The notes under the pieces were generated by a model, which saw only the letters and a program-made list of their open reading frames with translations, was not told the origin of the DNA and made no database searches. The translations under genes and the position numbers were made by a program. From Candidatus Parcubacteria bacterium (GTDB lineage: Bacteria; Patescibacteriota; Minisyncoccia; Minisyncoccales; JAGMDC01): a stretch of 64,000 nucleotides of DNA. Location of the stretch: positions 176,474 to 240,473 of the forward strand of contig JAGLYZ010000002.1 of assembly GCA_023131895.1 (NCBI GenBank), given 5' to 3'. This document shows, one piece after another, positions 3,051 through 55,544 of this stretch. Each line of letters opens with the position of its first letter. The first letter of the stretch is position 1.

Positions 3051-3092
3051 GTTCCTTCGCCCTCGCTCCCCTTCGCTTTGTTCAGGGTTCAC

Positions 3093-3220
3093 TCGAGCTT
3101 AGTCAAGTTAAAAGTTAAAAATTAAAAATTAGAATTTAAGAAAAAAATTAAATTAATTAAACTTTTAACTTAAAACTTTAACTTTTCATTTTTAACTTTT
3201 AACTAAAGTCCAGTAATTTA
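3093..3220. repeat. Family-2 palindromic intergenic element (AGTTAAAAGT units)
   Basis: caagttaaaagttaaaaattaaaaattagaatttaag ... cttaaaactttaacttttcatttttaacttttaact. Central part nearly identical to 21569-21704. Confidence 0.8.
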
Positions 3221-4483
3221 TTAAACCCTCACTCTTTTGATGTCCGCCCCTAACTTCTGTAGTCGTTCTTCAATCCGTTCGTATCCTCTGTCAATTTGAT
3301 AAATATTATTTATAGTTGTAGTGCCTTTAGCTAAAAGTCCAGCAATAATCAAAGAAGCGCCTCCTCTAATATCCCAGCTTTCAATATTCAAACCATGCAA
3401 TGGCGTCTTGCCGAAAATAATAGCTCGATGAGGATCAACTATTTCAATATCTGCTCCCATTTTTTTTAATTCTTCAAGATAACTAAAACGGGATTCATAT
3501 AAAGGATCATGGATTAGAGTTTTGCCATTCGCTTGAGTTGACAAAACAGAAGTAAAAGGCAAAAAATCAGTAGGAAATCCAGGATAGAAAAATGTCTGAA
3601 TTCTCGCCGGCTTCAAATCAGGAGAATAGTCAACAGTAATAGAATTATTTCCTTTTTTGAACCTCACTCCTATCTCTTCTAATTTATCTAAAAAAAGATC
3701 TAAGTGATCAAGCCGAATATTTTTTAAAACAACTTGACCGGGAGTCATGCAGCCAGCTATTATAAAAGTTGCTGTTACTATTGGATCAGGAATAATTTTA
3801 TGTGAAGCACCATTCAACTTTTCTTTGCCCTTAATAATAATTGTATGCGATCCTAATCCTTGAATTTCCGCTCCCATTTTTTGAAGCATTTCTCCCAAAT
3901 CCTGGACTTGCGGCTCGCAAGCTGCGCCTTTAATAGTCGTTTCACCATCTAATAAAGAAGCAGCCATCATCACATTTTCTGTAGCTGTAACACTAAATTC
4001 TTTTAAAATAATCTCTGCAGGAAAAAGATTTTCTGATTTAAAATCATAAAAATTTTCTCTTTCTTCAATCTGAACGCCAAATCTTTTTAAAGCTTCTAAA
4101 TGAGTAGTAATAGGCCTTAAACCAATCCTATCACCGCCAGGACGAAAGAATTTAAAATCTCTAAAACGAACCAATAAAGGCCCTATTAGAAGAACTGAAA
4201 CTCTTGTTTTATAAATTTTTTCTGGATCTAATTTACTGATATCCACTTGTTCTGCCTTTATTCTTATTTTTCTTTTATCAATCCAATCTACTCGCACTCC
4301 CATATCTTTTAAAATATCAATCATTGTAAAAACATCTTCCATTAAAGGAAGATTATCAATAATGACTTCTTCTTTAGTCAAAAGAGAAGCAGCTAAAACT
4401 GCTCCAGCAGAGTTTTTATATCCCTCAATTTCTACTTCGCCGTTTAACGGTTTCCCGCCTTGAATAATAAATTTCTCTGGCAT
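3221..4483 (-). CDS. murA: UDP-N-acetylglucosamine 1-carboxyvinyltransferase
   Basis: 420 aa; MPEKFIIQGGKPLNGEVEIEGYKNSAGAVLAASLL. The active-site loop reads RPGGDRIGLRPI, with Asp where E. coli has Cys115. Confidence 0.9.
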   Translation of the reverse strand: MPEKFIIQGGKPLNGEVEIEGYKNSAGAVLAASLLTKEEVIIDNLPLMEDVFTMIDILKDMGVRVDWIDKRKIRIKAEQVDISKLDPEKIYKTRVSVLLIGPLLVRFRDFKFFRPGGDRIGLRPITTHLEALKRFGVQIEERENFYDFKSENLFPAEIILKEFSVTATENVMMAASLLDGETTIKGAACEPQVQDLGEMLQKMGAEIQGLGSHTIIIKGKEKLNGASHKIIPDPIVTATFIIAGCMTPGQVVLKNIRLDHLDLFLDKLEEIGVRFKKGNNSITVDYSPDLKPARIQTFFYPGFPTDFLPFTSVLSTQANGKTLIHDPLYESRFSYLEELKKMGADIEIVDPHRAIIFGKTPLHGLNIESWDIRGGASLIIAGLLAKGTTTINNIYQIDRGYERIEERLQKLGADIKRVRV

Positions 4484-4547: not shown

Positions 4548-4576
4548 TTAAAAAAAGAACGCTCAAATGGAGCGTT
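4548..4576 (-). terminator. Rho-independent terminator after the 4579..5790 gene
   Basis: Minus strand AACGCTC-CATTT-GAGCGTT followed by CTTTTTTT. Confidence 0.7.
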
Positions 4577-4578
4577 TA

Positions 4579-5790
4579 TTACAATTTATTTTTTACTTTA
4601 AAAACAGCGAACCGCGCCGCAATTCCCGGGTTGCTGAAAAGCAATGTTGTTACCAAAGAGATAGCAGAGGCCTCCGATGAAAAATTTACATCTTTTAAGG
4701 AATGGCCCAAGTCATTATAGTCTTTGTCTGTTAAGGTCTGGGAAAACCTTCTCATTGTAAGGAACTGCTCATTATCTTTCCCGAATGCCACAAAAATTCT
4801 TCTCCTGTAATCAGCCAATCCTTTTTTGGAAGTGTCTCCTTTTGAAATAGCTGCGGCTGCTATCTCGCCTGCAATCTTCCCTGATTCCATTCCGGTTCTT
4901 AATCCTCCTCCTGATATATAATTAACAGCTCCTGCGGCATCCCCTGCTAACATTACATCATCTGCGACTATATCAGATGGCGGCGCTCCTGGAATTATTC
5001 CTGCTGTTTTTTCTATAATCTGGTATTCCTTGAATACTCTTCCAACAAAACCGTTCAAAAAGTAATCAGGAACAGAAATATCAAACTCCTTAAGTTTGTC
5101 TTCAAACATTCCTATTCCCACATTGGCAGTACTGTTTCCTTTCGAAAAAATCCAAGCATAACCGCCACCAGGGGCAATCTTGGGACCCAAAAAACACCTA
5201 ACTCTATCTAAATCTTCAAGTTCGGGCGAGTATACTAAATACTGCTGACCAAGTATTTTATCAGAAGGATTTAGTTTTGTGTCTACTCCTGCACATTTAC
5301 CTATCCTGGATTCAGGACCGTCTGCTCCGATTACAATCTTAGCAGGAAAAGAATAATCGTGCCCAGATGAAACCACCCTAACTACCACACAATCTGCTTC
5401 TTTGTTTCTTGTAAACCCAACTGCTGTGCCCTTAACTATTTCAGCTCCCGCTCTCAGCGCGCTTATTGCCAAATCTTTGTCTAAAATTCTTCTCTCTAAA
5501 ACATATCCCTTCCTATCCACTGTTATTGTAGTTCCGTCTGGAGTAATAATTTCAGCTATTTTTGCCTGCTTAGCTACCCAACGCGGAACTGCCTTTTCTC
5601 CTAAAAGAGCTTTTAATATTTCTAACCCCTCTTCACTTATTCCTTCCGCGCATTGGACCGGAATACCTATTCCGTGATGTTTTTCTACCATCAAAACATC
5701 TAATCCCTGTTCCGCTGCTGTTTTCGCCGCTACTGATCCGGACGGCCCTGCTCCAACTACTACCACGTCAAATATTCCTTTTTCCCCCAT
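4579..5790 (-). CDS. FAD-dependent geranylgeranyl reductase family oxidoreductase
   Basis: DVVVVGAGPSGSVAAKTAAEQGLDVLMVEK dinucleotide fold, GADGPESRIG and LAGDAAG motifs. Visibly GC-richer than neighbours. AAGGAGGA lies 9 nt before the ATG. Confidence 0.75.
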   Translation of the reverse strand: MGEKGIFDVVVVGAGPSGSVAAKTAAEQGLDVLMVEKHHGIGIPVQCAEGISEEGLEILKALLGEKAVPRWVAKQAKIAEIITPDGTTITVDRKGYVLERRILDKDLAISALRAGAEIVKGTAVGFTRNKEADCVVVRVVSSGHDYSFPAKIVIGADGPESRIGKCAGVDTKLNPSDKILGQQYLVYSPELEDLDRVRCFLGPKIAPGGGYAWIFSKGNSTANVGIGMFEDKLKEFDISVPDYFLNGFVGRVFKEYQIIEKTAGIIPGAPPSDIVADDVMLAGDAAGAVNYISGGGLRTGMESGKIAGEIAAAAISKGDTSKKGLADYRRRIFVAFGKDNEQFLTMRRFSQTLTDKDYNDLGHSLKDVNFSSEASAISLVTTLLFSNPGIAARFAVFKVKNKL

Positions 5791-6121
5791 TTTACATCAT
5801 CCTCCTTTTTCAATTTTTCGTGTACTTTTAATGGCTTATTTCTTCGCCATCTAATAAACCTTATTATACATTCAAATTTTTGTCAAATGTTAAATGTGCA
5901 CTTTAATAATCTTGCGACCGCAAGAAAAGTCAAGTAGACAAGTGTTAAACATTCAATGCATAACAAACCAGCACGATCGTATCAGTTTGTTATAAAGATT
6001 ATCCAAATATAAATCTTTAAAAAATCGCATAGATAAAAAAAGAACGTTCAGTCATTTTAACCAAACGCGTTTTTGTTTTTTCAGCCAAACGCTAATTAAG
6101 CAAATGTTTGCGATTATAGCA

Positions 6122-6790
6122 CTACTCCCAGCCGAATATATCTTTCACTTGCTTTATTCTCTCGACATCGCCTGTTCTTTTGAAATATCCCAATGCTCTG
6201 CTGCCGAAACTCATAGCTAAATCACCTCTGCCTTCCATTTTCCAATATTCTTCTGCCAATCTTGCTTCTGTCAAAGCGAGCCCCCTCTCGTCCTGCGCTT
6301 CTCTTCGCGCGGCCAAAGTCATTTTATAAAACAAAATGGCTTTCTCTGTATCCCCTCTCACTTGCTTAATATACGCAAGGTTTTGCATCATATTTCCAAT
6401 ATCTGCGATAGTCGCCGCGTCATCTGCCATTGCCTCTATGAGCACCATTTTTGTTTGCCGTATTTCCTCGTCAAAAATTGTAATCTTGCCGTATATCTTG
6501 CAGATGAATCGCTGGAATACAGAATACGCTTTTGCTATTGGGTCATTTTCTCTGAACGCAATTGCCATTTCTATCGCTTCGACAGCTATATCATATTTGC
6601 CCATTCTCTGCAAAGTACTCCCTCGATAATGCCATGTCAATCCCAACAAAGATTGTTGCATCTCGACTTCAGGCAAAAGATTTATCTCATCAAAAGCCAT
6701 GTTCAACTGGGCTAACGCCTCTTCGTTCTTACCAACTTTCGAAAGCCGATTCGCTTCATTCACCATTTCCCTTATCTTCTTTTCTTCCAT
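6122..6790 (-). CDS. TPR-like helical repeat protein, function unknown
   Basis: Repeated A/G/Y-patterned helix pairs (NLAYIKQVRGDTEKAILFYKMTL...). GC-richer. AGGAGGTGA precedes the ATG. Confidence 0.5.
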   Translation of the reverse strand: MEEKKIREMVNEANRLSKVGKNEEALAQLNMAFDEINLLPEVEMQQSLLGLTWHYRGSTLQRMGKYDIAVEAIEMAIAFRENDPIAKAYSVFQRFICKIYGKITIFDEEIRQTKMVLIEAMADDAATIADIGNMMQNLAYIKQVRGDTEKAILFYKMTLAARREAQDERGLALTEARLAEEYWKMEGRGDLAMSFGSRALGYFKRTGDVERIKQVKDIFGWE

Positions 6791-6896
6791 TTTTCTCTTT
6801 TTTTCACCTCCTGTTCTTTTTTCTATATTAAACTCTTATGTGCTGATGGTTTATTTTCTTACCATCAAATAAACAATATCACTTTTTTAAAGTTTG

Positions 6897-7619
6897 TCAA
6901 ATTTTTAAGCCGATGAATGAAGCAAACCTGGGCTTTTTTTCTTTGTAAATTTTTGGAAATTGTTCCTGTTTTCGGGCTGAAAAATATTTTTTGTATTTAC
7001 AAAAAGTGCAAACTTTACAATCTTCTATATTTTTTCTTTTTATCCCAGACTTTAAAAGTTCGTCAAAAGCTAACTTGGTTAAATCAAAAAATATTTTTTC
7101 TTTTCTTTTCACAAAATATTTCTTGAATTTAGTATTTTTAAGATTTTGATAACTTTTTCCTTTTAACCAATAATGACAAACCCTTATATGCGGACCAATT
7201 CCCACTAAAACATCTTTTGGATTTGTTTTAAAATTCCTAACCATTTTATCAATAGTATTTTTAATAATTCCCTTAACTAAACAATTCCTGCCGCTGTGTA
7301 AAGCGGCAATTACTTTTTGTTTTGGATCGTATATTAAAATTGGCACACAATCAGCAGAAATTGTGGCTAAAATCTGGCCGGGTATATTGGAAATTAAACC
7401 ATCAACATTTTTTACGGTTTTTCCTAAGTCTTTCTGTTTGCAGATATGAACTCTTGAACTAAAAACCTGCTGCGCCCAAATCAAATTTTTGGAATTAATA
7501 TTTTTGTAAGCTAAAAATTCTAAAAATTTTATTGCTTGCTTATTAGTTCTCATTGAACCAAAAGAATTATCTGAAACTCCATGAATTAAGTTTTTATTTT
7601 TAAAAATTTTAAACTGCAT
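6897..7619 (-). CDS. pgeF: YfiH/PgeF (DUF152) laccase-domain purine nucleoside phosphorylase family
   Basis: ISADCVPILIYD, AALHSGRNC and IGPHIRVCHY match the His-Cys-His DUF152 pattern. AT-rich native composition, no SD. Confidence 0.7.
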   Translation of the reverse strand: MQFKIFKNKNLIHGVSDNSFGSMRTNKQAIKFLEFLAYKNINSKNLIWAQQVFSSRVHICKQKDLGKTVKNVDGLISNIPGQILATISADCVPILIYDPKQKVIAALHSGRNCLVKGIIKNTIDKMVRNFKTNPKDVLVGIGPHIRVCHYWLKGKSYQNLKNTKFKKYFVKRKEKIFFDLTKLAFDELLKSGIKRKNIEDCKVCTFCKYKKYFSARKQEQFPKIYKEKKPRFASFIGLKI

Positions 7620-7650
7620 AGATTTATTTTACAATAAACCTCAAAATTTT

Positions 7651-7688
7651 CCAAAAAAACAAGCAGAGATATAAATATAATTCTCTGC
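7651..7688 (-). terminator. Rho-independent terminator after the 7718..8416 gene
   Basis: Minus strand GCAGAGA-loop-TCTCTGC followed by TTGTTTTTTT. Confidence 0.65.
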
Positions 7689-7717
7689 ATAAAACTTTTT
7701 TATATTTGTGCTATCTT

Positions 7718-8416
7718 TCACAACTTTTCCATTACTTCTCTTAATCTGTTCCTGAGTCCGCCAAGATGTCCTCTTGATGGTTCTTCTTCCTGCAAATAAT
7801 AGTCCGCTGCTAACAGCAAATCTCTCGCTCCATCTATGATATCTATGTTTCCTCTGATCCTCGCCGCTCCTCTGTTGTTGACAATATTCCCGGCGTGCCT
7901 GAAATCTTCTCTTGAAATTTCCTCGAAATCATTTATCTCATTAAAAACCTTTACTGCTCCACTGAAGTCACTTTCTTTCATCTTGCGTAGTCCTCTGGCA
8001 TTTATTTCTCTGAAAATCGACGCTGTATTTCCCGTCTTACTTGCTATCTCACGGATTTCTTTTTCTATCCTTCTGGCCTCGTCAAAGTTCTCTTCAAGCT
8101 CGCTAACAATCACTGTCAACAAATAGCCATATTTCACCTTAAGCGACGGCTCCTTTATTTGTTGATAATACTCTCCTACGCTTTCCTTAAGCATAGATAT
8201 GTGCCGGTCGGTTGTGAAAAACTTTCTAACCCAGTAATACTCTCCGAAAAAGCCATTATATATCCCCTCCGCGATCTCCTCTACTGATTTACCGCCTTCC
8301 TTCATGTCTTCCTCTAGTTTATTTGTCTTTTCCATTATTGACACGTATTCCTCTCCTCCAACAGCCTTTGCATAAAGACTGTTAATTTCCTCTATCCTAT
8401 TTTCAAATTCTCCCAT
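7718..8416 (-). CDS. Helical (TPR-like) hypothetical protein
   Basis: Start set at MGEFENR, preceded by AAGGAGGT. The C-terminal part (HAGNIVNNRGAARIRGNIDIIDGARDLLLAADYY) resembles the 6122..6790 protein. Confidence 0.5.
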   Translation of the reverse strand: MGEFENRIEEINSLYAKAVGGEEYVSIMEKTNKLEEDMKEGGKSVEEIAEGIYNGFFGEYYWVRKFFTTDRHISMLKESVGEYYQQIKEPSLKVKYGYLLTVIVSELEENFDEARRIEKEIREIASKTGNTASIFREINARGLRKMKESDFSGAVKVFNEINDFEEISREDFRHAGNIVNNRGAARIRGNIDIIDGARDLLLAADYYLQEEEPSRGHLGGLRNRLREVMEKL

Positions 8417-8451
8417 TTTTTCCTTTTTACCTCCTTTTTTACAATCACCTT

Positions 8452-8625
8452 TTATATATTCTCCCAACGATTTCCGTCGCCATCGTAACCATCAATCTCT
8501 CCATTCGGACAAATGACAGCTGTTACTATTCCTACTCCATGATTAAAGACGTTTTGGCATTCTCCAGTTATTCTAGCCTTCTCTTTCACCCTTCTAAATT
8601 GTTCTTCTATTTCTATTTCTTCCAT
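8452..8625 (-). CDS. Small hypothetical protein (57 aa)
   Basis: MEEIEIEEQFRRVKEKARITGECQNVF...; AGAGGTGA precedes the ATG. First gene of a two-gene cassette. Confidence 0.4.
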   Translation of the reverse strand: MEEIEIEEQFRRVKEKARITGECQNVFNHGVGIVTAVICPNGEIDGYDGDGNRWENI

Positions 8626-8743
8626 TTTTTTTCTTTTCACCTCTTTTTACTTTTTCTCCTTTTTTACTTCTAAATGTGCAGGTCATCGGGCTTGCTCACA
8701 CACCTAAAATTAGGTGATAATAAAAACAGCAAGCCCTCACTGA

Positions 8744-8792
8744 ATTATAAGCATAGCAAACTCTTTCCTTTTTGTCAATATTTGGATATAAT
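8744..8792. promoter_or_regulatory. Divergent promoter region
   Basis: Minus strand: TTGACA (8773-8778), 17 nt, TATGCT, then an adjacent TATAAT. Plus strand: TATAAT (8787-8792), 6 nt, then the ATG at 8799. Confidence 0.5.
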
Positions 8793-8798
8793 TAGATT

Positions 8799-10241
8799 AT
8801 GACTAATAAATTCAGGGCTATATCAATTTTTGTTTTAATATCTTCATTTTTTCTGATTACTCCTATTTTGGTTTTACACTCGCAGGGATATCGTTTTGAT
8901 TTTAATCCGCCAAGCGGCGGAATAAAAATTACCCAAACAGGGGGTTTGTTTGTGAAGGTTTTTCCTAAAAATGCTGATGTTTTTTTAGATGGAAAGATAG
9001 AAGAAAAAACAAGCTTTTTCTTTGGCTCGGTTTATATTGATAACTTGCTGCCAAAAAAATACAATATTCGGGTAGAAAAAAATGATTATAATATCTGGGA
9101 AAAAAATTTAGAAATAAAAGAAAAACAAGTTGCTGAAGCGAAAAACATTACTTTAATTCCAAAAAATTTAGAGATTAAAACTTTAACTAAAAAAGTAGAA
9201 AACTTTTGGGTTTTATCTCAAGAAAAATTAATTTTTGAAGAATCCGCTTCCGCCTTCGCTAAAGCTTCGGCGGATGAAAAAGCTACGACGGACGAGGATG
9301 AATGGGCTTTGAAAATATTTGATTTAGAAAACAATCTTAAGAACCACTTAATTAGTGAAAAAGAAATTTCTAAAAAAGAATCAGAGCTATTAAAATTAAA
9401 TATTTCTTCAGACAATAAAAAAATCCTCTTGAAACTCGGGATTAAAGAACAGCTTCAATACTATATCTTAGATTTAGAACAAAGCCCGCCTGAAATTATT
9501 CCTCTTGATTTTTTAGAATCAGACGCAGAAAGAGTTGATTTTCATCCTCAAGAGCTAAATATAATATTTTATTTTAAAGATGGTAATTTATTTGAAGTTG
9601 ATTTACTAAAACACATCGAGAATTGTTCTCGATGTGTTTTAGAAGAAATATTGACTTATAAAATTTTAGACAATAATATTTATTATATTAATCAGCGCGG
9701 TTATATTTTTAAAAATAATTTATCTTTTGATTCTGAAGAAAAAATCAATATTGTTCCTTTTTCTTTAAAAAAGGAAACTAAATATGAATTAAAAGTTGAG
9801 AATAGCCTTATTTTTATTTTAGAAAACCAAAGTTTATTTTTATTTAACTCAAAAGATAAAAACTTTGAAAAAATCTTTGAGCCAGTAAAAGAAATTAAAC
9901 TCTCTCCTGACGGCAAAAAAATCCTTTATTTTAATGAACACGAAATCTGGATTTTATTCCTGGAAAAACAAGAAAAACAGCCAAAAAAAGAAGCAATGAC
10001 CAAGCAATTTCTAAGCCGTTTTTCAGAAAAAATCAATGATGTTTCCTGGTTTAATTCTCATTATTTAATATTTGATTTAGAAAGTAAAATAAGAGTCATG
10101 GAAATCGATGACCGTGACAAAATAAATAATTATGAATTGTGTTCAGAAATAAAAAAATTCACTTGGGGTAATGAATTTAAACAACTTTACATTCTTACTA
10201 AAAAAAACGTTTTGAATTTTATTCCTCTATCTTCTTTTTAA
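8799..10241 (+). CDS. Membrane-anchored PEGA-domain protein with beta-propeller-like C-terminal part
   Basis: N-terminal TM helix; PEGA-like FVKVFPKNADVFLDGK...YNIRVEKNDY; SPDGKKILYFNEHEIWI repeats. Contains the GC-rich ASAFAKASAD insert. Confidence 0.55.
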   Translation: MTNKFRAISIFVLISSFFLITPILVLHSQGYRFDFNPPSGGIKITQTGGLFVKVFPKNADVFLDGKIEEKTSFFFGSVYIDNLLPKKYNIRVEKNDYNIWEKNLEIKEKQVAEAKNITLIPKNLEIKTLTKKVENFWVLSQEKLIFEESASAFAKASADEKATTDEDEWALKIFDLENNLKNHLISEKEISKKESELLKLNISSDNKKILLKLGIKEQLQYYILDLEQSPPEIIPLDFLESDAERVDFHPQELNIIFYFKDGNLFEVDLLKHIENCSRCVLEEILTYKILDNNIYYINQRGYIFKNNLSFDSEEKINIVPFSLKKETKYELKVENSLIFILENQSLFLFNSKDKNFEKIFEPVKEIKLSPDGKKILYFNEHEIWILFLEKQEKQPKKEAMTKQFLSRFSEKINDVSWFNSHYLIFDLESKIRVMEIDDRDKINNYELCSEIKKFTWGNEFKQLYILTKKNVLNFIPLSSF

Positions 10242-10893
10242 AATCATTCCAATCAATCTCTCCATCTCCAGCTGTTGAACAAACATCTTTAAACTGGCAA
10301 TAGTTGCACTGCCAGTTATTTGGCGATTCTGCCAATTTTGGAGGAATAAGATTATTGTCAATTTTTGTTTTTAGCGATTCAAATCCTTGTAAAAGAGATT
10401 TCACAAGATTTTCATCATAATCAAACACAAATTCTTTAATGTTTTGCTGGTCTTTATCAATATAAAGCAATATGCCTTTTTTAATTTTAAAATAATGAAG
10501 ATAAAGCTGGACTTGTTGGAGATTCTCTGGCTTTGGCTCAGTTAGGTTTCTAAAAATCATACTGTTCATACTTTTAATATCTAAAACATAAAGCTCATTA
10601 TTTAAAGAAAGAATAGCATCTGCTCTGCCGGAAATTATTTCTTGTTCAGGGATTTTTATTTCTGCCGCTACCACAATACCTAATCTAATTAAGGTATTAA
10701 TAGTGTTCATATGCATTGACTCTCCACGTTCAAATATTCTTAGAATGCGCGCATCCATCTTTTCCCTGGGTACATTTTTAAATTTAAAAAATACTGCCCG
10801 GGGACATTTGCCCGCATCAGTAATATAAAAATGATTCTGCTCTCTATTGCTTTGCTGTTCCAAATAAAATTTATCTATAAGTTCTGTTAGCAT
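10219..10893 (-). CDS. Cas4/RecB-like PD-(D/E)XK nuclease with 4-Cys cluster, not next to any CRISPR array
   Basis: N-terminal Cys (GKCPRAVFF), GRADAI...LDIKS...QVQLY nuclease motifs, C-terminal CNYCQFKDVC (CX2CX5C). Start at MLTELIDKF. Confidence 0.7.
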   Translation of the reverse strand: MLTELIDKFYLEQQSNREQNHFYITDAGKCPRAVFFKFKNVPREKMDARILRIFERGESMHMNTINTLIRLGIVVAAEIKIPEQEIISGRADAILSLNNELYVLDIKSMNSMIFRNLTEPKPENLQQVQLYLHYFKIKKGILLYIDKDQQNIKEFVFDYDENLVKSLLQGFESLKTKIDNNLIPPKLAESPNNWQCNYCQFKDVCSTAGDGEIDWNDFKKKIEE

Positions 10894-10894
10894 A

Positions 10895-10921
10895 TTATCT
10901 CTTTCTCCACTGCGGAGCGCG
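10895..10921. repeat. 27-bp direct repeat, copy A (duplicate of the rpsI 3' end)
   Basis: TTATCTCTTTCTCCACTGCGGAGCGCG is identical to 11433-11459. Confidence 0.9.
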
Positions 10922-10944
10922 CACCGCACTGGCACTCGCCACAC

Positions 10945-10985
10945 TTGACAAATTACGTGGGATTGCTATAATAAAAACAGGAGGT
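10945..10985 (+). promoter_or_regulatory. Consensus sigma70-type promoter plus SD of the 10991 cassette
   Basis: TTGACA, 16 nt, TATAAT, then AGGAGGT 5 nt before the ATG. Confidence 0.7.
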
Positions 10986-10990
10986 AAAAA

Positions 10991-11323
10991 ATGATAAACG
11001 ACAGTGGTATTCTATACATTGAACCATCGGCTCGTGTATCTCTTCATCCAATCGTCGATCAGTTGACCCGCAAGATGACTGCAGCATTTCGTCGAAGTAT
11101 TCCTGGCCCTGGATATCGTGGATTCCATGTATGTAGCTGTGGTGTATTTAGTTCTAACTGCGACTACAAGTTACCGAACGACCAGATAACTAATTCTCTA
11201 TGTATTCACTATCTGGCATTTCATCGAGAAGAAATTCCCGAAACAGAACTAAAGAAAGCGGGACGATTGGACTACGGCGAAGAAGAGCCAACCGCGGAGG
11301 AACTCAAAGCTCCACGCAGGTAA
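10991..11323 (+). CDS. Small Cys/His-rich hypothetical protein (110 aa) on a GC-richer cassette
   Basis: FHVCSCGVFSSNCDY...LCIHYLAFHREEIPETEL. Own promoter, SD and terminator. Opposite strand to all neighbours. Confidence 0.6.
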   Translation: MINDSGILYIEPSARVSLHPIVDQLTRKMTAAFRRSIPGPGYRGFHVCSCGVFSSNCDYKLPNDQITNSLCIHYLAFHREEIPETELKKAGRLDYGEEEPTAEELKAPRR

Positions 11324-11349
11324 CATTTTTTACATAAGGGCTTCGGCTC

Positions 11350-11385
11350 AAGGTTCACTTCAATGTGAACCCTTTTTATTTTCCT
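11350..11385 (+). terminator. Rho-independent terminator of the 10991 cassette
   Basis: GGTTCAC-TTCAAT-GTGAACC followed by CTTTTTATTTT. Confidence 0.7.
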
Positions 11386-11432
11386 CAAAATCCATGCCGT
11401 TATCTTCCTATCCATGCACGGCGCACACTTCC

Positions 11433-11459
11433 TTATCTCTTTCTCCACTGCGGAGCGCG
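11433..11459. repeat. 27-bp direct repeat, copy B (true 3' end of rpsI)
   Basis: Encodes ...APQWRKR-stop of S9. Identical to 10895-10921. Confidence 0.9.
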
Positions 11460-12339: not shown

Positions 12340-12690
12340 CTACTTAACTAATTCTATTATCGCCATCTTTGTTCCGTCTGATTTTCTAATTCCTAATTTT
12401 ATAATTCGAGTATAGCCACCATTCCTCCCCTTATATCTTGGTCCAATATCATCTATAAGTTTCTTAACTATTTTAGGAGCAAAAAACTTGGCTAATAATC
12501 TTCTTGCAGCCATTGTTCCTTTTTTTGCTTTGGTAATATTTTTCTCAACAAATTTGGAAACTTCCTTGCTTTTTACTTCAGTTGTTTTTATTTTCTCATT
12601 CAAAATAAGAGCACTTGCTAAAGTTTTTAAAAGCGCTTTCCGCTGATCTTTTTGCCTATGAAATTTTCTACCTTCTTTTCGTTTTCGCAT
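12340..12690 (-). CDS. rplQ: 50S ribosomal protein L17
   Basis: MRKRKEGRKFHRQKDQRKALLKTLASALI...GGYTRIIKLG. Confidence 0.9.
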   Translation of the reverse strand: MRKRKEGRKFHRQKDQRKALLKTLASALILNEKIKTTEVKSKEVSKFVEKNITKAKKGTMAARRLLAKFFAPKIVKKLIDDIGPRYKGRNGGYTRIIKLGIRKSDGTKMAIIELVK

Positions 12691-13468
12691 TATACTTTTT
12701 CTTTTTTATGGCTGGTTTCTTTGCCTTTGTAGGTTTCTCTTTTTTCGCTGGCTTTTCGGTTTCTAATGGCTTCGGCTTTTCTTTTTCTTGAAAAATATCT
12801 GTAAGTAAGGAAAAATGTTTCTTTAAAATTTCAGAGGACTGGAATAGGGCTTGCTCCGGAGTAATAGTCCCATCTGTCTCAATCTCTATTTTTAAACTGT
12901 CAAAATCCGTCCTTTCCTCTACCATAACATTTTCTATATGGAAGGACACTTTTCTCACTGGTGTAAAAATTGCATCAAGAGGCATTTCACCTATTTCCAA
13001 TTTCTCTTTTTTTCTCCATTCTACCGGCTCATAACCAAATCCTCTCTCAACTAAAATTTCCATTTCTAATTCTGCTTTCTTATCTGTTAAAGTAGCCATA
13101 AAAGCATCTTTATTTATTAAATCTAATTGAGCCGGCAATTTAAAGTCAGAACCTTTTACTTTTTTCTCGCCCTTTATAGAAAGAACTGCTCTTTGCGGCT
13201 CATCACTATGAATCTTAAACCTTAATTGTTTTAAATTTAATAAAATTGAAACCACATCCTCTAAAACACCTGGGATAGTTGAAAACTCGTGGGAAATTCC
13301 TCTAATTTTTACTTGAGTAACCGCAGCACCAGGCAAAGAAGAAAGTAAAACTCTCCTTAAAGCATTTCCAACAGTAACACCGTAACCAGGATAAAGAGCT
13401 TCTATTTGAAAACGAGCCCAGTTGTCTTTTTTTTCAATAATTTTTATTTTATTAGGTAAAGAAATCAT
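12668..13468 (-). CDS. rpoA: RNA polymerase alpha subunit, N-terminal domain only, with Lys/Pro-rich tail
   Basis: GYGVTVGNALRRVLLSSLPGAAVT...; 266 aa. After about residue 228 only EKEKPKPLETEKPAKKEKPTKAKKPAIKKKK. Overlaps the rplQ start by 23 nt. Confidence 0.85.
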   Translation of the reverse strand: MISLPNKIKIIEKKDNWARFQIEALYPGYGVTVGNALRRVLLSSLPGAAVTQVKIRGISHEFSTIPGVLEDVVSILLNLKQLRFKIHSDEPQRAVLSIKGEKKVKGSDFKLPAQLDLINKDAFMATLTDKKAELEMEILVERGFGYEPVEWRKKEKLEIGEMPLDAIFTPVRKVSFHIENVMVEERTDFDSLKIEIETDGTITPEQALFQSSEILKKHFSLLTDIFQEKEKPKPLETEKPAKKEKPTKAKKPAIKKKKYNAKTKRR

Positions 13469-13569
13469 AAAATCATTTTAACATCTAAACATTTAAGCAT
13501 CTTAACATATAAACATAATTTAAATTCAGAATGTTAAAATGTTAGAATGTTTGAGTGTTAGTATGCTAT
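13469..13569. repeat. Family-1 palindromic intergenic element
   Basis: aaaatcattttaacatctaaacatttaagcatcttaacat ... atgttaaaatgttagaatgtttgagtgttagtatg; rpoA-rpsD spacer. Confidence 0.8.
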
Positions 13570-14196
13570 TTATCTTGAATAATACTCAAAAATTACAGAA
13601 ATCTCGGCAGGAAAATCTGACTCATCCATTAATGGTTCTTCCTTAACTTTTGCTTCTAGCTTTTCTAAATTGAGTTCTAACCAGGCAGGAAGCTGATATT
13701 TTTTCAAAGCAGCAGGAAGTTTCTGAAAAATGTTTAGTTTCAAAGAAGAAGGATGAATAGTGATTTTGTCTCCTTTCTTTAATTTGTAAGAAGGTATATT
13801 AACTTTCTTTCCATTAATTAAAAAATGTTGATGGGAAACCATTTGTCGAGCTTGAGAACGGGAAGAAGCCCATCCTAATTTAAAAATTACATTATCAAAA
13901 CGGCTCTCTAACTCTTTCATAAGAAAGGTTCCTGCATCCTCTACTTTCCCTCTTTTTCCTAATGCTTTTTTTACGTATTTGCTGAATTGCTCTTCTTTTA
14001 GATTATACCAATTTTTAAGTTTTTGTTTTTCTTTTAATTCCTTGCCGTATTCAGAAATAGATTTTCTTCTTTTAATTCTTTTGCCAGGCGGATAAGGCCT
14101 TTTTATCATAGCGCATTTAGTAGAGAAACATCGCTCTCCTCTTAAAAAAAGCTTGACTTCAGCTCTTCTACAAATTTTACATTTTGCGTTAATCAT
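13570..14196 (-). CDS. rpsD: 30S ribosomal protein S4
   Basis: Start set at MINAKCKICRRAEVKLFLRGERC (zinc-type N-terminus); S4 domain SRSQARQMVSHQHFLINGKKV. Confidence 0.9.
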   Translation of the reverse strand: MINAKCKICRRAEVKLFLRGERCFSTKCAMIKRPYPPGKRIKRRKSISEYGKELKEKQKLKNWYNLKEEQFSKYVKKALGKRGKVEDAGTFLMKELESRFDNVIFKLGWASSRSQARQMVSHQHFLINGKKVNIPSYKLKKGDKITIHPSSLKLNIFQKLPAALKKYQLPAWLELNLEKLEAKVKEEPLMDESDFPAEISVIFEYYSR

Positions 14197-14212: not shown

Positions 14213-14665
14213 TTATACTCTTCTTGCCTTTCTAGGCCTGCACCCATTATGAGGTATAGGTGTAACATCCTTAATAGATAAAATATCAAAACCTCTGCTT
14301 GCTAAGGCTCTTATTGCTGAATCTCTGCCACTGCCAACGCCTTTTACTATTATTTGAATTCTTTCTATTCCTATTTTTTGAGCCCGTTGGATTAATGCTT
14401 CAGCGACTTTTGAAGCGGCAAAAGGGGTAGCTTTTTTTGTTCCCCTAAAACCGATATTGCCAGCGCTTGCCCAGCTTAATATATTTCCCTGCAAATCAGT
14501 CAGTGTAATAATAGTATTATTATAAGAAGAATAAATACAAACTCTGCCTTCGTTTATTTTTCTGGAAGGTTGAATCTTTGTCTCTTTTTTTACAGCAGCA
14601 TCTACTTTTTCCTTTTCTTGAATCAGCTCTTTTTCTGTTTTTTGAATAATACGTTTCTTACCCAC
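14213..14665 (-). CDS. rpsK: 30S ribosomal protein S11 with N-terminal extension (GTG start)
   Basis: GRVCIYSSYNNTIITLTDLQGNILSWASAGNIGFRGTKKATPFAA... Confidence 0.9.
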   Translation of the reverse strand: MGKKRIIQKTEKELIQEKEKVDAAVKKETKIQPSRKINEGRVCIYSSYNNTIITLTDLQGNILSWASAGNIGFRGTKKATPFAASKVAEALIQRAQKIGIERIQIIVKGVGSGRDSAIRALASRGFDILSIKDVTPIPHNGCRPRKARRV

Positions 14666-14755
14666 AGAAGCATACTAACATATTAACATACTAACATATT
14701 AACAAAATGTAAATTCAAAATGTTAAAATGCTTAAATGTTAGAATGTTAGAATGA
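14666..14755. repeat. Family-1 palindromic intergenic element
   Basis: catactaacatattaacatactaacatattaac ... atgttaaaatgcttaaatgttagaatgttagaatg; rpsK-rpsM spacer. Confidence 0.8.
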
Positions 14756-18701: not shown

Positions 18702-18759
18702 AGCTTTATTTTATCAAATTTTACCAAAAATAAAAGACCTTACTGGCCTTAATTTTTTT

Positions 18760-18860: not shown

Positions 18861-20357
<1,497 letters not shown>

Positions 20358-23115: not shown

Positions 23116-23152
23116 AATAGTTTTAATATATCATCACTTTGAAAAATAATCA

Positions 23153-23186
23153 AGACATTGACTTTTTTGTCTGGTTTGGTAGAAAG
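23153..23186 (+). promoter_or_regulatory. Repeated promoter-like box, copy 1
   Basis: agacaTTGACTtttttgtctggtttggTAGAAAg; 33/34 identical to 24092-24125. Confidence 0.5.
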
Positions 23187-23258
23187 GATATACGATTTGA
23201 TGATAGGTTTCGCACCTTGAAAATTTGGTGGTATAAAAAAGAAAAGGAGGTGAAAAAA

Positions 23259-23990
23259 ATGGTAGATATCGTAGATGCATTAAAGTATGTTGAAAAAATT
23301 AGTAAAAAAAGCGGTTATATTGGAATAGAAAACACAGAAGAAGAGGGATTGCATATTATTGGATTAGACCCTACAATGACACTTCTCTATGATATGGAAA
23401 TAGATAATATAATCTTGAATGGAAAAACAGACAATATTAGTGGAGAATTAAAAATTGCTATTGAGATACCGCCAACGATTAAAAAGGGCTCTATATTAGA
23501 AATTAGAAACAGAATGTGGCCAAGAATTATCGCTGAACAATATGATGGCAAACTAAAGATAAAGGAAGGCATTGACATAATACCCAATAAACATTCTTCT
23601 GCATTAAGAAAAGCTATGAAAAACATAAAACGCCAACTTCCAGACCCTACAGAGATAATCATTGACGCCCAGATACTCAAGAGAATACTAAGGTTAACAA
23701 GTAGAAAGTGGAAGATAAAAATAAAAACAGAAAACGGTATTAGCATGGTTTTCTATAAACTAACTGGCATGAATTGGAAGACAGCAACCACTATTGGAGA
23801 AGAGATAGAATTAAAGTGTCAAACCAAAATCAAAGGTAAGATAAACGAAGATGTCGCAATAGAGTATAGATACCTAAAAAAGATAGTGCCATTATTGTCA
23901 AATCATTTATATTTGGCAACAAAACCAAACTTTTCAACATATATAGGGACAGAAACAGGAATAGATCTTTTAATAGCACCTATAACATAA
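23259..23990 (+). CDS. Hypothetical two-domain protein, possibly sliding-clamp (PCNA/beta-clamp) fold
   Basis: Start at MVDIVDALKYV after AAGGAGGTGA. C-terminus VAIEYRYLKKIVPLLSNHLYLATKPNF...GIDLLIAPIT resembles clamp C-termini. By-eye similarity only. Confidence 0.35.
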   Translation: MVDIVDALKYVEKISKKSGYIGIENTEEEGLHIIGLDPTMTLLYDMEIDNIILNGKTDNISGELKIAIEIPPTIKKGSILEIRNRMWPRIIAEQYDGKLKIKEGIDIIPNKHSSALRKAMKNIKRQLPDPTEIIIDAQILKRILRLTSRKWKIKIKTENGISMVFYKLTGMNWKTATTIGEEIELKCQTKIKGKINEDVAIEYRYLKKIVPLLSNHLYLATKPNFSTYIGTETGIDLLIAPIT

Positions 23991-23996
23991 TTTTTT

Positions 23997-24023
23997 GGGA
24001 TAATATACTTTATCCCTTTTTTA
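23997..24023 (+). terminator. Terminator after the 23259..23990 gene
   Basis: GGGAT-loop-ATCCC followed by TTTTTT. Short stem. Confidence 0.45.
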
Positions 24024-24091
24024 TTTTCAATTTTGATTTCCGATTACTTGACTTTTTATCCATATGGATATTTTTTCAAGTTTTATTGTAA

Positions 24092-24125
24092 AGACATTGA
24101 CTTTTTTATCTGGTTTGGTAGAAAG
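24092..24125 (+). promoter_or_regulatory. Repeated promoter-like box, copy 2
   Basis: agacaTTGACTtttttatctggtttggTAGAAAg. A perfect 14-bp palindrome TATCCATATGGATA lies about 25 nt upstream. Confidence 0.5.
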
Positions 24126-24168
24126 AAAATAATAAAGCAAATTTCAAAAAAATAAGGAGGTGATAAAA

Positions 24169-24351
24169 ATGGGTTCGGAAACAGAGCAAGAAATTTTACA
24201 AGTAATAGCTCAACTGAAAGAACTAAGCCAAAAAAAGGATTTTGAAAAAGCGATAGAATCATTAGAAGAACAACGCATAATTCTCGACATTAATCCACAG
24301 GCATTTTGTTCAAGAATAAATTCACTCTGTGGGAAATATGTTTTAACATAA
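24169..24351 (+). CDS. Small helical hypothetical protein (60 aa)
   Basis: MGSETEQEILQVIAQLKEL...; AAGGAGGTGA 6 nt upstream of the ATG. Confidence 0.45.
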   Translation: MGSETEQEILQVIAQLKELSQKKDFEKAIESLEEQRIILDINPQAFCSRINSLCGKYVLT

Positions 24352-24364
24352 AAAGAAAAGCTAT

Positions 24365-24395
24365 GAGGCATCTATTATTTGCCTCTTTTTTTTGG
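24365..24395 (+). terminator. Rho-independent terminator
   Basis: GAGGCA-tctattattt-TGCCTC followed by T8. Confidence 0.7.
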
Positions 24396-50886: not shown

Positions 50887-50915
50887 TTGACAAAATTTTG
50901 ATGGTATGTTATGCT
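50887..50915 (+). promoter_or_regulatory. Promoter of the small membrane-protein cassette
   Basis: TTGACA, 17 nt, TATGCT. GAGGTGA lies 5 nt before the ATG at 50934. Confidence 0.6.
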
Positions 50916-50933
50916 AATTTTGAGGTGATAGAA

Positions 50934-51158
50934 ATGGAAGATGAATACGAAAGCAACAAAAACATAACGTCAGGAATACTGTGGACATCAATCGGAAGTG
51001 CATCCTCTTTATGCTCCACAATAATAGCACTATTGCTATCGAGTATATTTTTAGGGATATTAGCATCGATAATCTTTGGAGCAACGATAGCCATTTTCCT
51101 TACAACAATAGTAGGGATAATAGCGACATTAGAAGAATCATTGAAAGAGGATGGATAG
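50934..51158 (+). CDS. Small two-TM membrane protein (74 aa)
   Basis: MEDEYESNKNITSGILWTSIGSASSLCSTIIALLLSSIFLGILASIIFGATIAIFLTTIVGIIATL. Own promoter, SD and terminator. Confidence 0.5.
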   Translation: MEDEYESNKNITSGILWTSIGSASSLCSTIIALLLSSIFLGILASIIFGATIAIFLTTIVGIIATLEESLKEDG

Positions 51159-51193
51159 AATAGTTCTTTCAAAAAACCAAAAAATATAAAATA

Positions 51194-51228
51194 GGTAGCA
51201 ATCATCGTATTGCTGCCGATTTTTTTTA
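51194..51228 (+). terminator. Rho-independent terminator
   Basis: GGTAGCAAT-catcgt-ATTGCTGCC followed by GATTTTTTTT. Confidence 0.7.
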
Positions 51229-54145: not shown

Positions 54146-54150
54146 GGCGA

Positions 54151-54190
54151 GCGCGAATTACTCTCTCCTTGCCATACACCGAGCTTGCTC
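54151..54190. repeat. GC-rich direct repeat, copy 1
   Basis: gcgcgaattactctctccttgccatacaccgagcttgctc; compare 55502-55544. Confidence 0.7.
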
Positions 54191-54289
54191 CAGTGCTGGC
54201 GTCTCTCGTAATTCACAATTTGTTCAAAAATAGATTTTGTCATCTTAATAGAATTGTATCACATTTTTAGAATTAGAATAACATCTACT

Positions 54290-54553
54290 TTAATTTCTTA
54301 ACCCGTCGGTATTAGCGCAATCGGTTTCGTATTTTTTACCGTCAGACGCTTCTAATTTCAGTCCGTGACAAAATGTCACAACCTCATCACTTTCCTCTTT
54401 TAGTCGTTGTTTTAATTTCCTCCAATATGCTCCCGCATCAACGCTGTTGGTTAATACCTCGCACACATCAACAACCGAAAACCACCATTCATTCTTGTGA
54501 ATAGCTTTTCTCACTTTTTTGCCCTTGAAAATAGCAATTTTAGTATCATTCAT
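54290..54553 (-). CDS. Bro-N/antirepressor-like N-terminal fragment (87 aa)
   Basis: KVRKAIHKNEWWFSVVDVCEVLTNS...YWRKLKQRLKEE resembles N-termini of longer phage-type proteins. Probably truncated. Confidence 0.45.
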   Translation of the reverse strand: MNDTKIAIFKGKKVRKAIHKNEWWFSVVDVCEVLTNSVDAGAYWRKLKQRLKEESDEVVTFCHGLKLEASDGKKYETDCANTDGLRN

Positions 54554-54589
54554 AAATATTTAATTGTTGTAATTAACATAAAAAACCTT

Positions 54590-55018
54590 TTATTTCTCAA
54601 TAAATTTCAAAATATAGCCGCAGTATTTCGCGTATTGTTTAATCGCCTCGTCAACGCTTTTATGAACAATATGCTTATCTAAATTATTATAGTCATGAAC
54701 TACGGCATTTCTAAATCCAGCGCTCTCTGCTATTTCTTTGGCAAAATCTACCGGCAGAACGCCCATATTGGCTAATCGTAAAAATGTTTCCCTGTATTTC
54801 AATGGAGCTTCTAATTTAGCATCACCTGCTTCGGCGATAATGTGTTCGTTAATATCAATCGCCCGACCGATTATCTCCATTAAAAAATTCTTCAAGGCAG
54901 CATATTTCACATAATCTTTAGCAACTTCATTAATGGTTAAACCAGCCATTGCTTCTAATCTATTTAAATCTCGCTGGATATACTCAATTTTTACTTTAAT
55001 AAATTGTTTATTTAACAT
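54590..55018 (-). CDS. HEPN (DUF86) toxin of a HepT/MntA-type module
   Basis: RNAVVHDY (Rx4-6H motif); overlaps the upstream nucleotidyltransferase gene by 11 nt. Confidence 0.75.
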   Translation of the reverse strand: MLNKQFIKVKIEYIQRDLNRLEAMAGLTINEVAKDYVKYAALKNFLMEIIGRAIDINEHIIAEAGDAKLEAPLKYRETFLRLANMGVLPVDFAKEIAESAGFRNAVVHDYNNLDKHIVHKSVDEAIKQYAKYCGYILKFIEK

Positions 55019-55436
55019 AAGCTTCCATTAAATACTTCTGTCTCTTTTTTATGAGCTTTCCTAAAAGATAGAAAAGACTCTGGCTGTCCTGAAAATCGCG
55101 AAACGCATACGCCTTGAAAGAATAATAGTCAATAAGATTTCCATAAAGCAAAACACTATACCGCATCACTTCAAAACGAAACAAAGCATTGATCTTATGC
55201 AAAGATTTCAAATCCAGCTCTCGCTCACGATTATCGCCAAAAATATTCGCTAAATCACCATGGATTTTTAACAATTCCTCAAATTCAATCGGTTTTTTAC
55301 CAAGAACCGCAACGTCTAAATCGCTGCCGGGCTTAATTTTACCAGTAGCGTAAGAACCATGAAGTAAAATCAGCTTTAAATTATATTTTCTGCCAATTTC
55401 TTCAATTTTTTGCTTTTGTTCTTTGGTTATCAACAT
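55008..55436 (-). CDS. Minimal nucleotidyltransferase (MNT) antitoxin
   Basis: Start at MLITKEQ after TAGGAGGG; HGSYATGKIKPGSDLDVAV (GSx10SDxD). Confidence 0.75.
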   Translation of the reverse strand: MLITKEQKQKIEEIGRKYNLKLILLHGSYATGKIKPGSDLDVAVLGKKPIEFEELLKIHGDLANIFGDNRERELDLKSLHKINALFRFEVMRYSVLLYGNLIDYYSFKAYAFRDFQDSQSLFYLLGKLIKKRQKYLMEAYVK

Positions 55437-55501
55437 AATTTTTGTCCCTCCTATATTATAAGCAACAGGCCCCAAAGTAGAACAAGTTCACTACGGGGCA
55501 G

Positions 55502-55544
55502 GCGCGAATTACTCTCTCTCCTTGCCCCGCACCGAGCTTTGCTC
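55502..55544. repeat. GC-rich direct repeat, copy 2
   Basis: gcgcgaattactctctctccttgccccgcaccgagctttgctc. A weaker third piece (gcgattattctctctc) lies near 55737. Confidence 0.7.

Follow-up and report, generated by a model that had tools for sequence, protein, structure and literature searches.

Shine-Dalgarno-led accessory gene cassettes in a Parcubacteria genome whose 16S rRNA tail is without an anti-Shine-Dalgarno sequence

The stretch analysed here (the window) comprises 64,000 nt of a metagenome-assembled genome of Candidatus Parcubacteria bacterium (Minisyncoccales), and this report concerns nine open reading frames (ORFs) in it that are preceded by canonical Shine-Dalgarno (SD) sites. 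The window is AT-rich (GC 0.338) and holds ~77 genes, the majority on the minus strand, including the S10-spc-alpha and str ribosomal operons, tuf, fusA, alaS and one 16S rRNA gene; the closest genomes to it belong to Minisyncoccales and Nealsonbacteria. A first-pass annotation had listed nine SD-led ORFs without giving their strand. All nine were found where it had placed them, six of the nine on the minus strand. Two are called GGR and TPR after their products, and the otherwise nameless ones are lettered C to I in window order (Table 1). There was no sign of an alternative genetic code, the ORFs being long and contiguous under table 11. Related loci, designated by L numbers, were obtained via GGR, alaS and fusA and were aligned to the window by blastn.

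The nine genes carry a GGAGG or GAGGTGA core 5-16 nt upstream of ATG, with SD-to-start spacers of 5-10 nt in six genes and 12-16 nt in C, D and TPR. When duplex energies between the -25 to -1 region and a canonical 16S tail were calculated with ViennaRNA, we found that the nine genes ranged from -11.1 to -19.5 kcal/mol (mean -14.3), G having the strongest SD in the window (-19.5 kcal/mol), whereas the mean of the other 68 genes was -2.3 kcal/mol. The sole outlier among the 68 was a GGAGG 20 nt upstream of rpsE, within rplR. Random 25-mers from the window had a 1st percentile of -10.4 kcal/mol, and the presence of 9 of 77 genes beyond this value corresponds to a binomial P of ~9e-8. Every GGAGG, AGGAG and GAGGT in the window was listed as well. 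A canonical core stood before a real ORF start only at the nine genes, and an exhaustive scan gave no further intergenic SD-led ORF of at least 20 amino acids (aa), so the earlier list was complete. Chance matches or gene-calling artefacts as the origin of the SD sites were ruled out by this P value together with the scan.

The ribosomal partner of these sites is missing from the resident 16S rRNA. Its 3' end reads GGAUCA-UUACAUUU, where the canonical form would be GGAUCA-CCUCCUUU. In the Rfam alignment helix 45 fitted well, and the tail read GGAUCAUUACAUUU against the consensus GGAUCACCUCCUUu (GGAUCA-CCUCCUUu with the preceding GGAUCA). CCUCC was not found within ~80 nt downstream of the gene either. 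Against the resident tail the nine leaders averaged -3.1 kcal/mol, which is no useful pairing, and G-U wobble pairing (GGUGA:UCAUU), considered as a working SD interaction, is possible but yields only -2 to -5 kcal/mol. Alignment and duplex energies thus agree that the SD signals are complementary to a canonical tail that the resident gene does not have, as the first-pass annotation had proposed: the mRNA motif of SD-dependent initiation is present in nine genes and CCUCC is absent from the tail. The more distant relative L007 has a 16S tail ending in GGAUCAUUUAUUUUAG, likewise without an anti-SD. No 16S gene was found adjoining alaS in L005, and the nearest relatives (L001, L004 and L005) probably share the tail state, judging from L007 and from their SD-less core genes. 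In the 16929-20357 region the 16S gene is not followed by a 23S gene, and alaS begins ~160 nt past its 3' end; the 515-region reads GTGCCAGAAGCGTCGGTAA, which we take to deviate from the usual primer site. A subgroup of Parcubacteria has previously been described as having lost the anti-SD (Tsurumaki et al. 2022, PMC9297842), and organisms without an anti-SD have been reported to be without SD sites too (Amin et al. 2018, PMC6107228). The host of the window belongs to that Parcubacteria subgroup and is alike in having a tail without CCUCC and SD-less core genes. The passages searched in these surveys describe genome-wide SD loss and do not mention a conserved SD-led accessory minority such as that seen here, and our literature search found no description of SD-led accessory genes in bacteria of the candidate phyla radiation (CPR) without an anti-SD.

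The nine genes form eight transcription units. By consensus matches, seven of the eight have a TTGAC(A/T)-type promoter with 16-17 nt spacing, and seven of the eight end in a hairpin and T-run terminator. The TTGACA-type promoters that had been proposed therefore stand for D-C, TPR, E, H, F and G, with A or T as the last letter of the -35 box. For GGR the combination is TTGACA-17-TAAGGT, and the perfect TATAAT that is also present lies only 12 nt from the -35 box; the nucleotidyltransferase gene I has a TATAAT but no good -35. Five terminators mapped previously (those of GGR, D-C, E, G and H) were confirmed, and two had been overlooked (TPR and F). The SD-led leaders were 81 % purine and almost unstructured, with a minimum free energy of -0.7 versus -2.8 kcal/mol (P ~1e-3), and an Rfam search of them returned no known RNA element at gathering or E-value thresholds.

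Table 1. Features of the window, with the SD-led cassettes first and other elements after them (CDS, coding sequence)
Feature	Position	Strand	Description
GGR cassette	4549..5886	-	promoter TTGACA 5886-5881, 17-nt spacer, TAAGGT 5863-5858
GGR perfect TATAAT	5868-5863	-	
GGR 5' leader hairpin	~5850-5829	-	
GGR SD	5805-5801	-	GGAGG
GGR CDS	5790-4579	-	403 aa, geranylgeranyl-reductase-family flavoprotein
GGR terminator	4576-4558	-	followed by T-run
TPR cassette	6036..6900	-	promoter TTGACA-16-TATTGT 6900-6873
TPR leader hairpin		-	GATGGT..ACCATC
TPR SD	6811-6804	-	GGAGGTGA
TPR CDS	6790-6122	-	222 aa, TPR repeats
TPR terminator	6068-6044	-	followed by T-run
D-C cassette	7653..8778	-	two genes; promoter TTGACA-17-TATGCT 8778-8750
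D-C 5' stem-loop	~8736-8686	-	
D SD	8643-8637	-	GAGGTGA
D CDS	8625-8452	-	57 aa
C SD	8434-8429	-	GGAGGT
C CDS	8416-7718	-	232 aa
D-C terminator	7688-7653	-	
E cassette	10895..11459	+	perfect 27-bp direct repeats 10895-10921, 11433-11459
E promoter	10945-10972	+	TTGACA-16-TATAAT
E SD	10979-10985	+	AGGAGGT
E CDS	10991-11323	+	110 aa
E terminator	11352-11371	+	followed by T-run
F cassette	23152..24027	+	promoter TTGACT 23158-23163, 16-nt spacer, TAGAAA 23180-23185
F flanking repeats	23152-23192, 24091-24131		41-nt direct repeats
F SD	23244-23253	+	AAGGAGGTGA
F CDS	23259-23990	+	243 aa, near-orphan
F terminator	23997-24027	+	
G cassette	24091..24393	+	duplicated F promoter: TTGACT 24097-24102, TAGAAA 24119-24124
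G SD	24154-24163	+	AAGGAGGTGA
G CDS	24169-24351	+	60 aa
G terminator	24366-24393	+	
H cassette	50887..51227	+	antisense to str operon; promoter TTGACA-17-TATGCT 50887-50915
H SD	50922-50928	+	GAGGTGA
H CDS	50934-51158	+	74 aa
H terminator	51194-51227	+	
Putative MNT-HEPN islet	54146..55539	-	~41-nt direct repeats 54146-54186, 55497-55539
I promoter element	55460-55455	-	TATAAT
I SD	55451-55447	-	GGAGG
I CDS	55436-55008	-	MNT-type nucleotidyltransferase; Pfam Polbeta/NTP_transf_2, E 4e-17
Overlapping CDS downstream of I	55018-54590	-	142 aa
Anti-repressor-like CDS	54553-54290	-	PHROG match
Resident 16S rRNA gene	18861-20357	-	3' tail 18874-18861 reads GAUCAUUACAUUUU; CCUCC anti-SD lacking
8-nt arrays	1948-2048, 13469-13575, 14655-14764, 27545-27644, 39318-39415, 39803-39900, 40639-40736, 48243-48348, 58566-58640		
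Second repeat family	3088-3223, 21577-21729, 37304-37377, 42959-43081, 43906-44042, 53431-53490		
AAAAUGAUUU-led genes	rpoA 12668-13468, rplF 38736-39317, rpsH 39410-39799, tuf 47051-48250, rpsB 22291-23115		
-10-like box examples	24455 (rpmE), 28799-29701, 33627-34358, 16929-18701		

The nine genes had been described as visibly GC-richer than the core. This held for GGR, TPR, C and E (GC 0.41-0.45 against a core mean of 0.337) and only partly for the set as a whole, with D and H at 0.36-0.38 and F, G and I at 0.32-0.34. GC at third codon positions (GC3) was 0.253 +/- 0.038 in the core; the corresponding values were.457 for TPR,.425 for C,.369 for E,.343 for I,.333 for H,.317 for GGR,.279 for F,.276 for D and.213 for G. 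Codon usage was scored as a leave-one-out synonymous-codon likelihood and z-scored. It was clearly atypical in H (-7.3), E (-6.5), C (-4.3), TPR (-4.2) and GGR (-2.9), and near-native in I (-2.0), F (-1.8), G (-1.6) and D (-0.1).

Comparison with relatives revealed that several cassettes are insertions between core genes. The 27-bp repeats around E consist of the last 8 codons and the stop of rpsI. In L005, the closest relative (~87 % nucleotide identity), the end of rpsI runs straight into a PD-(D/E)XK gene with a single repeat copy, and the window has ~511 bp extra at this site. At the same junction L001 (4650-5185) carries a different insert of ~536 bp with palindromic GC-rich segments and no obvious ORF, which makes the rpsI / PD-(D/E)XK junction a hot spot of insertion in more than a single lineage. 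E belongs to a family of ~80 small, well conserved proteins with conserved Cys and His residues, found in CPR genomes, one deltaproteobacterial genome, nine IMG/VR viral contigs and three huge-phage records. Its AlphaFold model was confident (predicted local distance difference test score, pLDDT, 91.8) and had no match among PDB structures or viral predicted structures.

H lies in the rpsG-fusA gap. This gap measures 1061 nt in the window, but among 66 relatives it ranges from -7 to 659 nt and is mostly <150 nt; in L103, the closest relative of that comparison, it comes to 90 nt. The additional DNA contains H, which runs on the opposite strand, together with an AT-rich toxin-antitoxin-like pair. 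H is predicted to be a small hydrophobic and possibly membrane protein. The neighbouring pair (51254-51727, minus strand; 82 and 73 aa, GC ~0.27) has no SD and recurs at a different site in L005 (4423-4914, 72.5 % identity); it resembles a mobile toxin-antitoxin-like module that works without SD sites.

F and G are situated between rpsB and rpmE, and these two genes are adjacent in L007. The direct repeats that flank F are 93 % identical and include the promoter, and a 27-nt block spanning SD and start codon is common to F and G. In 1.84 billion cluster representatives F had a single homologue (36 %). Nothing but noise came from permissive sequence searches of Pfam and PDB, and the single-sequence AlphaFold model was unusable (pLDDT 31.6). 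A phage origin of F was considered and set aside, with no match in IMG/VR or GenBank phages. The nucleotidyltransferase I heads an islet, a candidate type II HEPN-MNT toxin-antitoxin module, in which the overlapping CDS would be the HEPN partner; this putative assignment comes from its position only, and PADLOC gave no match. The segment bounding the islet reads AAGCTCGGTG..GGCAAGGAGAGAG(AG)TAATTCGCGC..GCC (54140-54195, 55490-55545, minus strand), and one copy can fold a short hairpin (CGGGGCA/TGCCCCG); the segment may be an att-like site or a small RNA. C, D, E, F, G and H had no Pfam, PHROG or PADLOC assignment, TPR had no PHROGs or PADLOC match, and in all eight cassette proteins were without matches in PHROGs.

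The D-C cassette behaves as a slot with exchangeable contents. L001 and L005 both retain its promoter, 5' stem-loop and SD, and its terminator is kept in L001, the only relative reaching that far since the L005 sequence ends before it. The cargo differs in all three: the window has D and C, L001 has a small ORF together with a NUDIX gene, and L005 has other small ORFs. The C family comprises seven homologues in 5.8 billion proteins, and those with a label or an examined context are Patescibacteria-like. The genes neighbouring these homologues have no SD sites. A paralogy of TPR and C was examined and was not supported.

GGR and TPR show a different history. GGR orthologues (74-76 % identity) adjoin murA in L001-L004 and keep AAAGGAGGATGAT, and the two genes together occupy the same locus beside murA in three species, at synonymous divergences (dS) of 0.35-1.55. 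The ratio of nonsynonymous to synonymous divergence (dN/dS) was 0.22-0.32 for GGR, ~0.2 for TPR and 0.19-0.32 for both genes together, indicating that the proteins are made and are under selection. Both leaders are alignable from the -35 box to the ATG across orthologues, and the promoter and leader of GGR are homologous to those of TPR over ~100 nt (nhmmer E 1e-12 to 1e-17); no further copies of this module were found in the other fetched loci (182 in all). In comparisons with the window the dS of GGR (0.35-0.45) was lower than, and at 0.41-0.45 about half, that of the flanking murA and mreB (~0.8-1.0), which suggests later lateral spread; in the L001-L004 pair GGR and its flanking genes had similar dS (0.26-0.41). 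L001 has an additional SD-led cassette (122 aa) between GGR and murA. Beyond the three orthologues the named relatives of GGR are archaeal digeranylgeranylglycerophospholipid (DGGGP) reductases with 38-43 % identity, with one Parcubacteria exception, and closer outgroups (45-48 % identity) are without an organism label or are Patescibacteria-like. One of these homologues (48 % identical), on the Patescibacteria-like contig L101, has no SD at all, which fits motif loss after long residence.

The source is metagenome-assembled and several cassettes are compositionally atypical, as would be expected if the pattern were an artefact of chimeric assembly, of binning contamination from SD users or of chance matches in purine-rich leaders. 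The junctions of GGR and TPR, however, turn up again in assemblies of four independent origins (NCBI, Logan, ENA and JGI), which excludes chimeric assembly for these two genes. All cassettes lie inside a long contig between core genes, the E protein is found again on a 240-kb contig of a second assembly, the E insertion keeps its perfect duplication of the rpsI end, and chance is excluded by the P value given above. We consider an artefact scarcely credible.

To see the pattern beyond the window, we surveyed 80 loci from relatives with EF-G identities of 66-85 %, counting genes at or below -11 kcal/mol as SD-led. This class contained 9 of 718 core homologues, most of them start-calling artefacts, versus 30 of 588 other ORFs (Fisher P 5e-5), the latter including clean AAGGAGGTGA-led genes of unknown function. 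The statement that core genes are without SD sites therefore holds both in the window and in the related loci. Most accessory ORFs of the relatives are also without an SD, and the motif marks a subset of accessory genes only. Furthermore, on other small-genome contigs with E-, C- or GGR-family genes, the accessory gene and small neighbours have GGAGG- or GGTGA-type sites and the adjoining core genes (topA, dprA, parAB, ftsH, recJ, RF1 and others) are SD-less.

These data bear on whether canonical recognition is hidden in this host, such that CCUCC is exposed by a second 16S gene elsewhere on the contigs, by alternative processing of the 16S 3' end or by an RNA acting in trans, and a ribosome subpopulation translates the SD-led cassettes. 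CPR genomes normally carry a single rRNA copy, and this speaks against such an arrangement, as do the lack of CCUCC downstream of the resident 16S, the equally deficient tail of L007 and the SD-less core genes of the 80 loci. Anti-SD loss is moreover described as belonging to a whole Parcubacteria subgroup (PMC9297842). The window covers 64 kb of a contig of ~330 kb, which leaves room for such an element, and genomes with two 16S types differing in their anti-SD are known (Alteromonas; PMC6107228). On balance we hold hidden recognition to be very unlikely.

Collectively, we interpret the nine SD-led genes as eight self-contained, moron-like mobile cassettes in a host whose ribosome has lost the anti-SD, and place the probability of this interpretation at roughly 60 %. 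That the genes are accessory and horizontally mobile is well supported. Their foreign or mobile origin, already suggested by the first-pass annotation, is borne out by presence and absence among relatives, direct repeats, cargo exchange and composition. Marks of horizontal acquisition were found in GC3 and codon usage, in insertions and deletions relative to relatives and in the mostly archaeal named relatives of GGR. The further suggestion of recent import fits E, H and F/G, which are missing at the orthologous sites of relatives, and does not fit GGR and TPR, which are syntenic in three species, under purifying selection and conserved in SD and leader. The units share one makeup: a putative promoter of sigma-70 type, a leader that is unstructured, rich in purines and equipped with a canonical SD, then an ORF and, in seven of them, an intrinsic terminator. 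The cassettes would form part of a flexible gene pool of Patescibacteria and their phages, because the gene content is typical of such a pool (an archaeal-type GGR, a phage-associated E, the near-orphans C and F and the MNT islet), and would have entered, or been swapped at, intergenic hot spots that separate core genes in the Minisyncoccales genome. Entry may occur by a single crossover of imported or circularised DNA via a short identical segment, creating the 27-41 bp repeats, or alternatively by replacement via conserved homologous flanks. The SD would then be a portable, host-independent signal inherited with the cassette, perhaps with selection acting on the mobile gene itself over a range of hosts that retain an anti-SD, and in the present host the cassettes would be translated by the same SD-independent route as all other genes, aided by the open A-rich leader.

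Among known systems the closest analogue of the cassettes is the phage moron (HK97/HK022-type; Cumby, Davidson & Maxwell 2012, PMC3594210). Morons carry a promoter and terminator of their own, deviate in GC, are patchy among syntenic relatives, spread horizontally and often encode small unknown proteins (PMC3594210). The cassettes resemble them in being autonomous transcription units, as judged by promoter and terminator consensus matches, in deviating in composition (GGR, TPR, C, E and H, though not F, G and D) and in being absent (E, H, F/G) or replaced (D/C) in relatives. Unlike morons, which reside within a phage or prophage, they are flanked by core genes (rpsI, rpsB/rpmE, rpsG/fusA, murA and a Cu-oxidase_4-family gene), no phage structural or integrase genes were recognised alongside, and the E family alone has viral-contig relatives. 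The 27-41 bp direct repeats and the reusable promoter and leader slot also fall outside the moron definition. Like integron cassettes and hot-spot islets, they are variable single-gene units at fixed positions, with one slot whose cargo changes under a conserved promoter; integron cassettes, however, are promoterless and depend on attC and IntI, whereas these have their own promoters and are bordered by target direct repeats that are not attC-like. A lineage that ignores SD sites and keeps strong ones on a small specific gene set is also known from Bacteroidia rpsU. There the anti-SD is intact but sequestered and the SD-led rpsU serves bS21 autoregulation (PMC7797042, PMC13000453). That is a core ribosomal gene with a feedback role, in contrast to the present host, where mutation has removed the anti-SD and SD sites precede variable accessory genes.

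Several observations weigh against the interpretation as mobile cassettes with an inherited signal. An SD that is pure baggage in a host without an anti-SD should decay, and the data show no decay. AAAGGAGGATGAT (GGR) and GAGGTGA (TPR) are invariant in three species, and with synonymous tree lengths of ~0.6 and ~1.9 the neutral probabilities of such invariance are ~4e-4 and ~1e-6, respectively, well beyond synonymous-site expectation. C-family genes keep GGTGA-type motifs at 52-73 % protein identity beside SD-less neighbours. The GGR and TPR leaders are paralogous and F and G have promoter and SD blocks in common, so whole promoter-leader-SD modules have been copied inside the lineage, and F and G combine the strongest SD sites with native-like composition. 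No SD-using donor, as postulated by the first-pass annotation, was identified by homology searches for any cassette, and no near-identical copies were found in other lineages (beyond orthologues, identities reached at most 66 % in E, 73 % in C and 48 % in GGR). No integrase or recombinase adjoining the cassettes was recognised when their products were scanned, a window-wide intI scan not having been made.

The invariant motifs, the copied modules and the combination of strong SD sites with native-like composition in F and G, together with the retention of leader and SD in the D/C slot while the cargo changes, would be expected if the cassettes followed a distinct expression regime kept in place, in which GGAGG(TGA) works without 16S pairing and marks a separately regulated accessory class. 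The motif might serve as part of a purine-rich standby site or S1-binding site, take part in mRNA stabilisation or processing, or be the target of some protein or RNA. The first-pass annotation had raised such a regime; SD conservation and leader-module duplication favour it, yet it is unproven. On the other side, the motif is an exact match to as many as 10 nt of the canonical anti-SD, a precision not readily explained other than by evolution against a CCUCC tail, and pairing with the resident tail amounts to only ~-3 kcal/mol. Conservation covers the entire GGR and TPR leaders and extends beyond the SD alone, so the constraint may lie outside the motif. The lower dS of GGR suggests later lateral spread and not long vertical retention, a distant GGR homologue is without an SD, and so are most accessory ORFs of relatives. 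We regard a maintained regime of this kind as doubtful. Put in its most general form, the idea is that in Parcubacteria without an anti-SD selection actively maintains the SD on portable promoter-leader-SD 'expression slots', through a mechanism that does not pair with 16S or through a hidden specialised ribosome or RNA; this seems to us improbable. The motif is thus either baggage carried along by a mobile gene pool or an element whose function can do without an anti-SD.

Other features of the window concern its core genes. Arrays built of 8-nt units, first (TTTAACAT)n and then (ATGTTAAA)n, occupy intergenic positions, form long AT-rich hairpins (-11 to -22 kcal/mol) and lie directly upstream of highly expressed core genes, tuf, rplF, rpsH, rplE and rpoA among them. 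A second repeat family, AAGTTAAAAGT.../...ACTTTTAACTT, consists of inverted repeats of up to -27 kcal/mol, each ending in TTGAGCGAWAGCGAAC right before the ATG of rpsC, rpsS, secY and others, and interrupts ribosomal-protein operons that are normally tightly packed. We also found that ..AAAAUGAUUU just before the AUG of rpoA, rplF, rpsH, tuf and rpsB is complementary to the resident tail (AUCAUU / ACAUUUU). These leaders reach -6.3 to -9.2 kcal/mol against it (background 1st percentile -8.0), with a very short spacing to the AUG of 3-4 nt. The pairing could stand in for the SD/anti-SD interaction or simply follow from the 8-mer repeats. In many core genes a -10-like box lies only 3-10 nt ahead of the ATG (for example ttgttacTATAATattATG). 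These boxes may point to leaderless or very short-leader mRNAs as the default translation start, although TATAAT-like hexamers are common in this AT-rich DNA. Finally, the tblastn match of fusA to EF-G spans 2.6-3.0 kb in many relatives (L103, L105-L111 and others) versus 2.07 kb in the window, suggesting that fusA of related Patescibacteria may contain an insertion of 0.5-0.9 kb, an intein or another insert.

Organisms without an anti-SD have been reported as free of SD sites altogether, and the window is a sharp exception in which a minority of accessory cassettes have textbook SD sites, some of them conserved across species with the protein under purifying selection. If the SD is only baggage, the case is one of instructive but ordinary gene transfer. 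If it is maintained, there would be a second, anti-SD-independent function of the SD, which these genomes would offer a natural setting to isolate. Where a lineage has no anti-SD, the SD is a cheap and very specific marker of flexible, horizontally moving genes, and it is a sharper one here than GC because F, G and D are compositionally native. The window also gives a first look at gene uptake by very small CPR genomes, through single-gene, moron-like units at hot spots inside ribosomal-protein operons, which have long direct repeats at their borders or are exchanged inside a constant promoter and terminator slot. In summary, these genomes are a natural experiment on the role of the SD without ribosome pairing.

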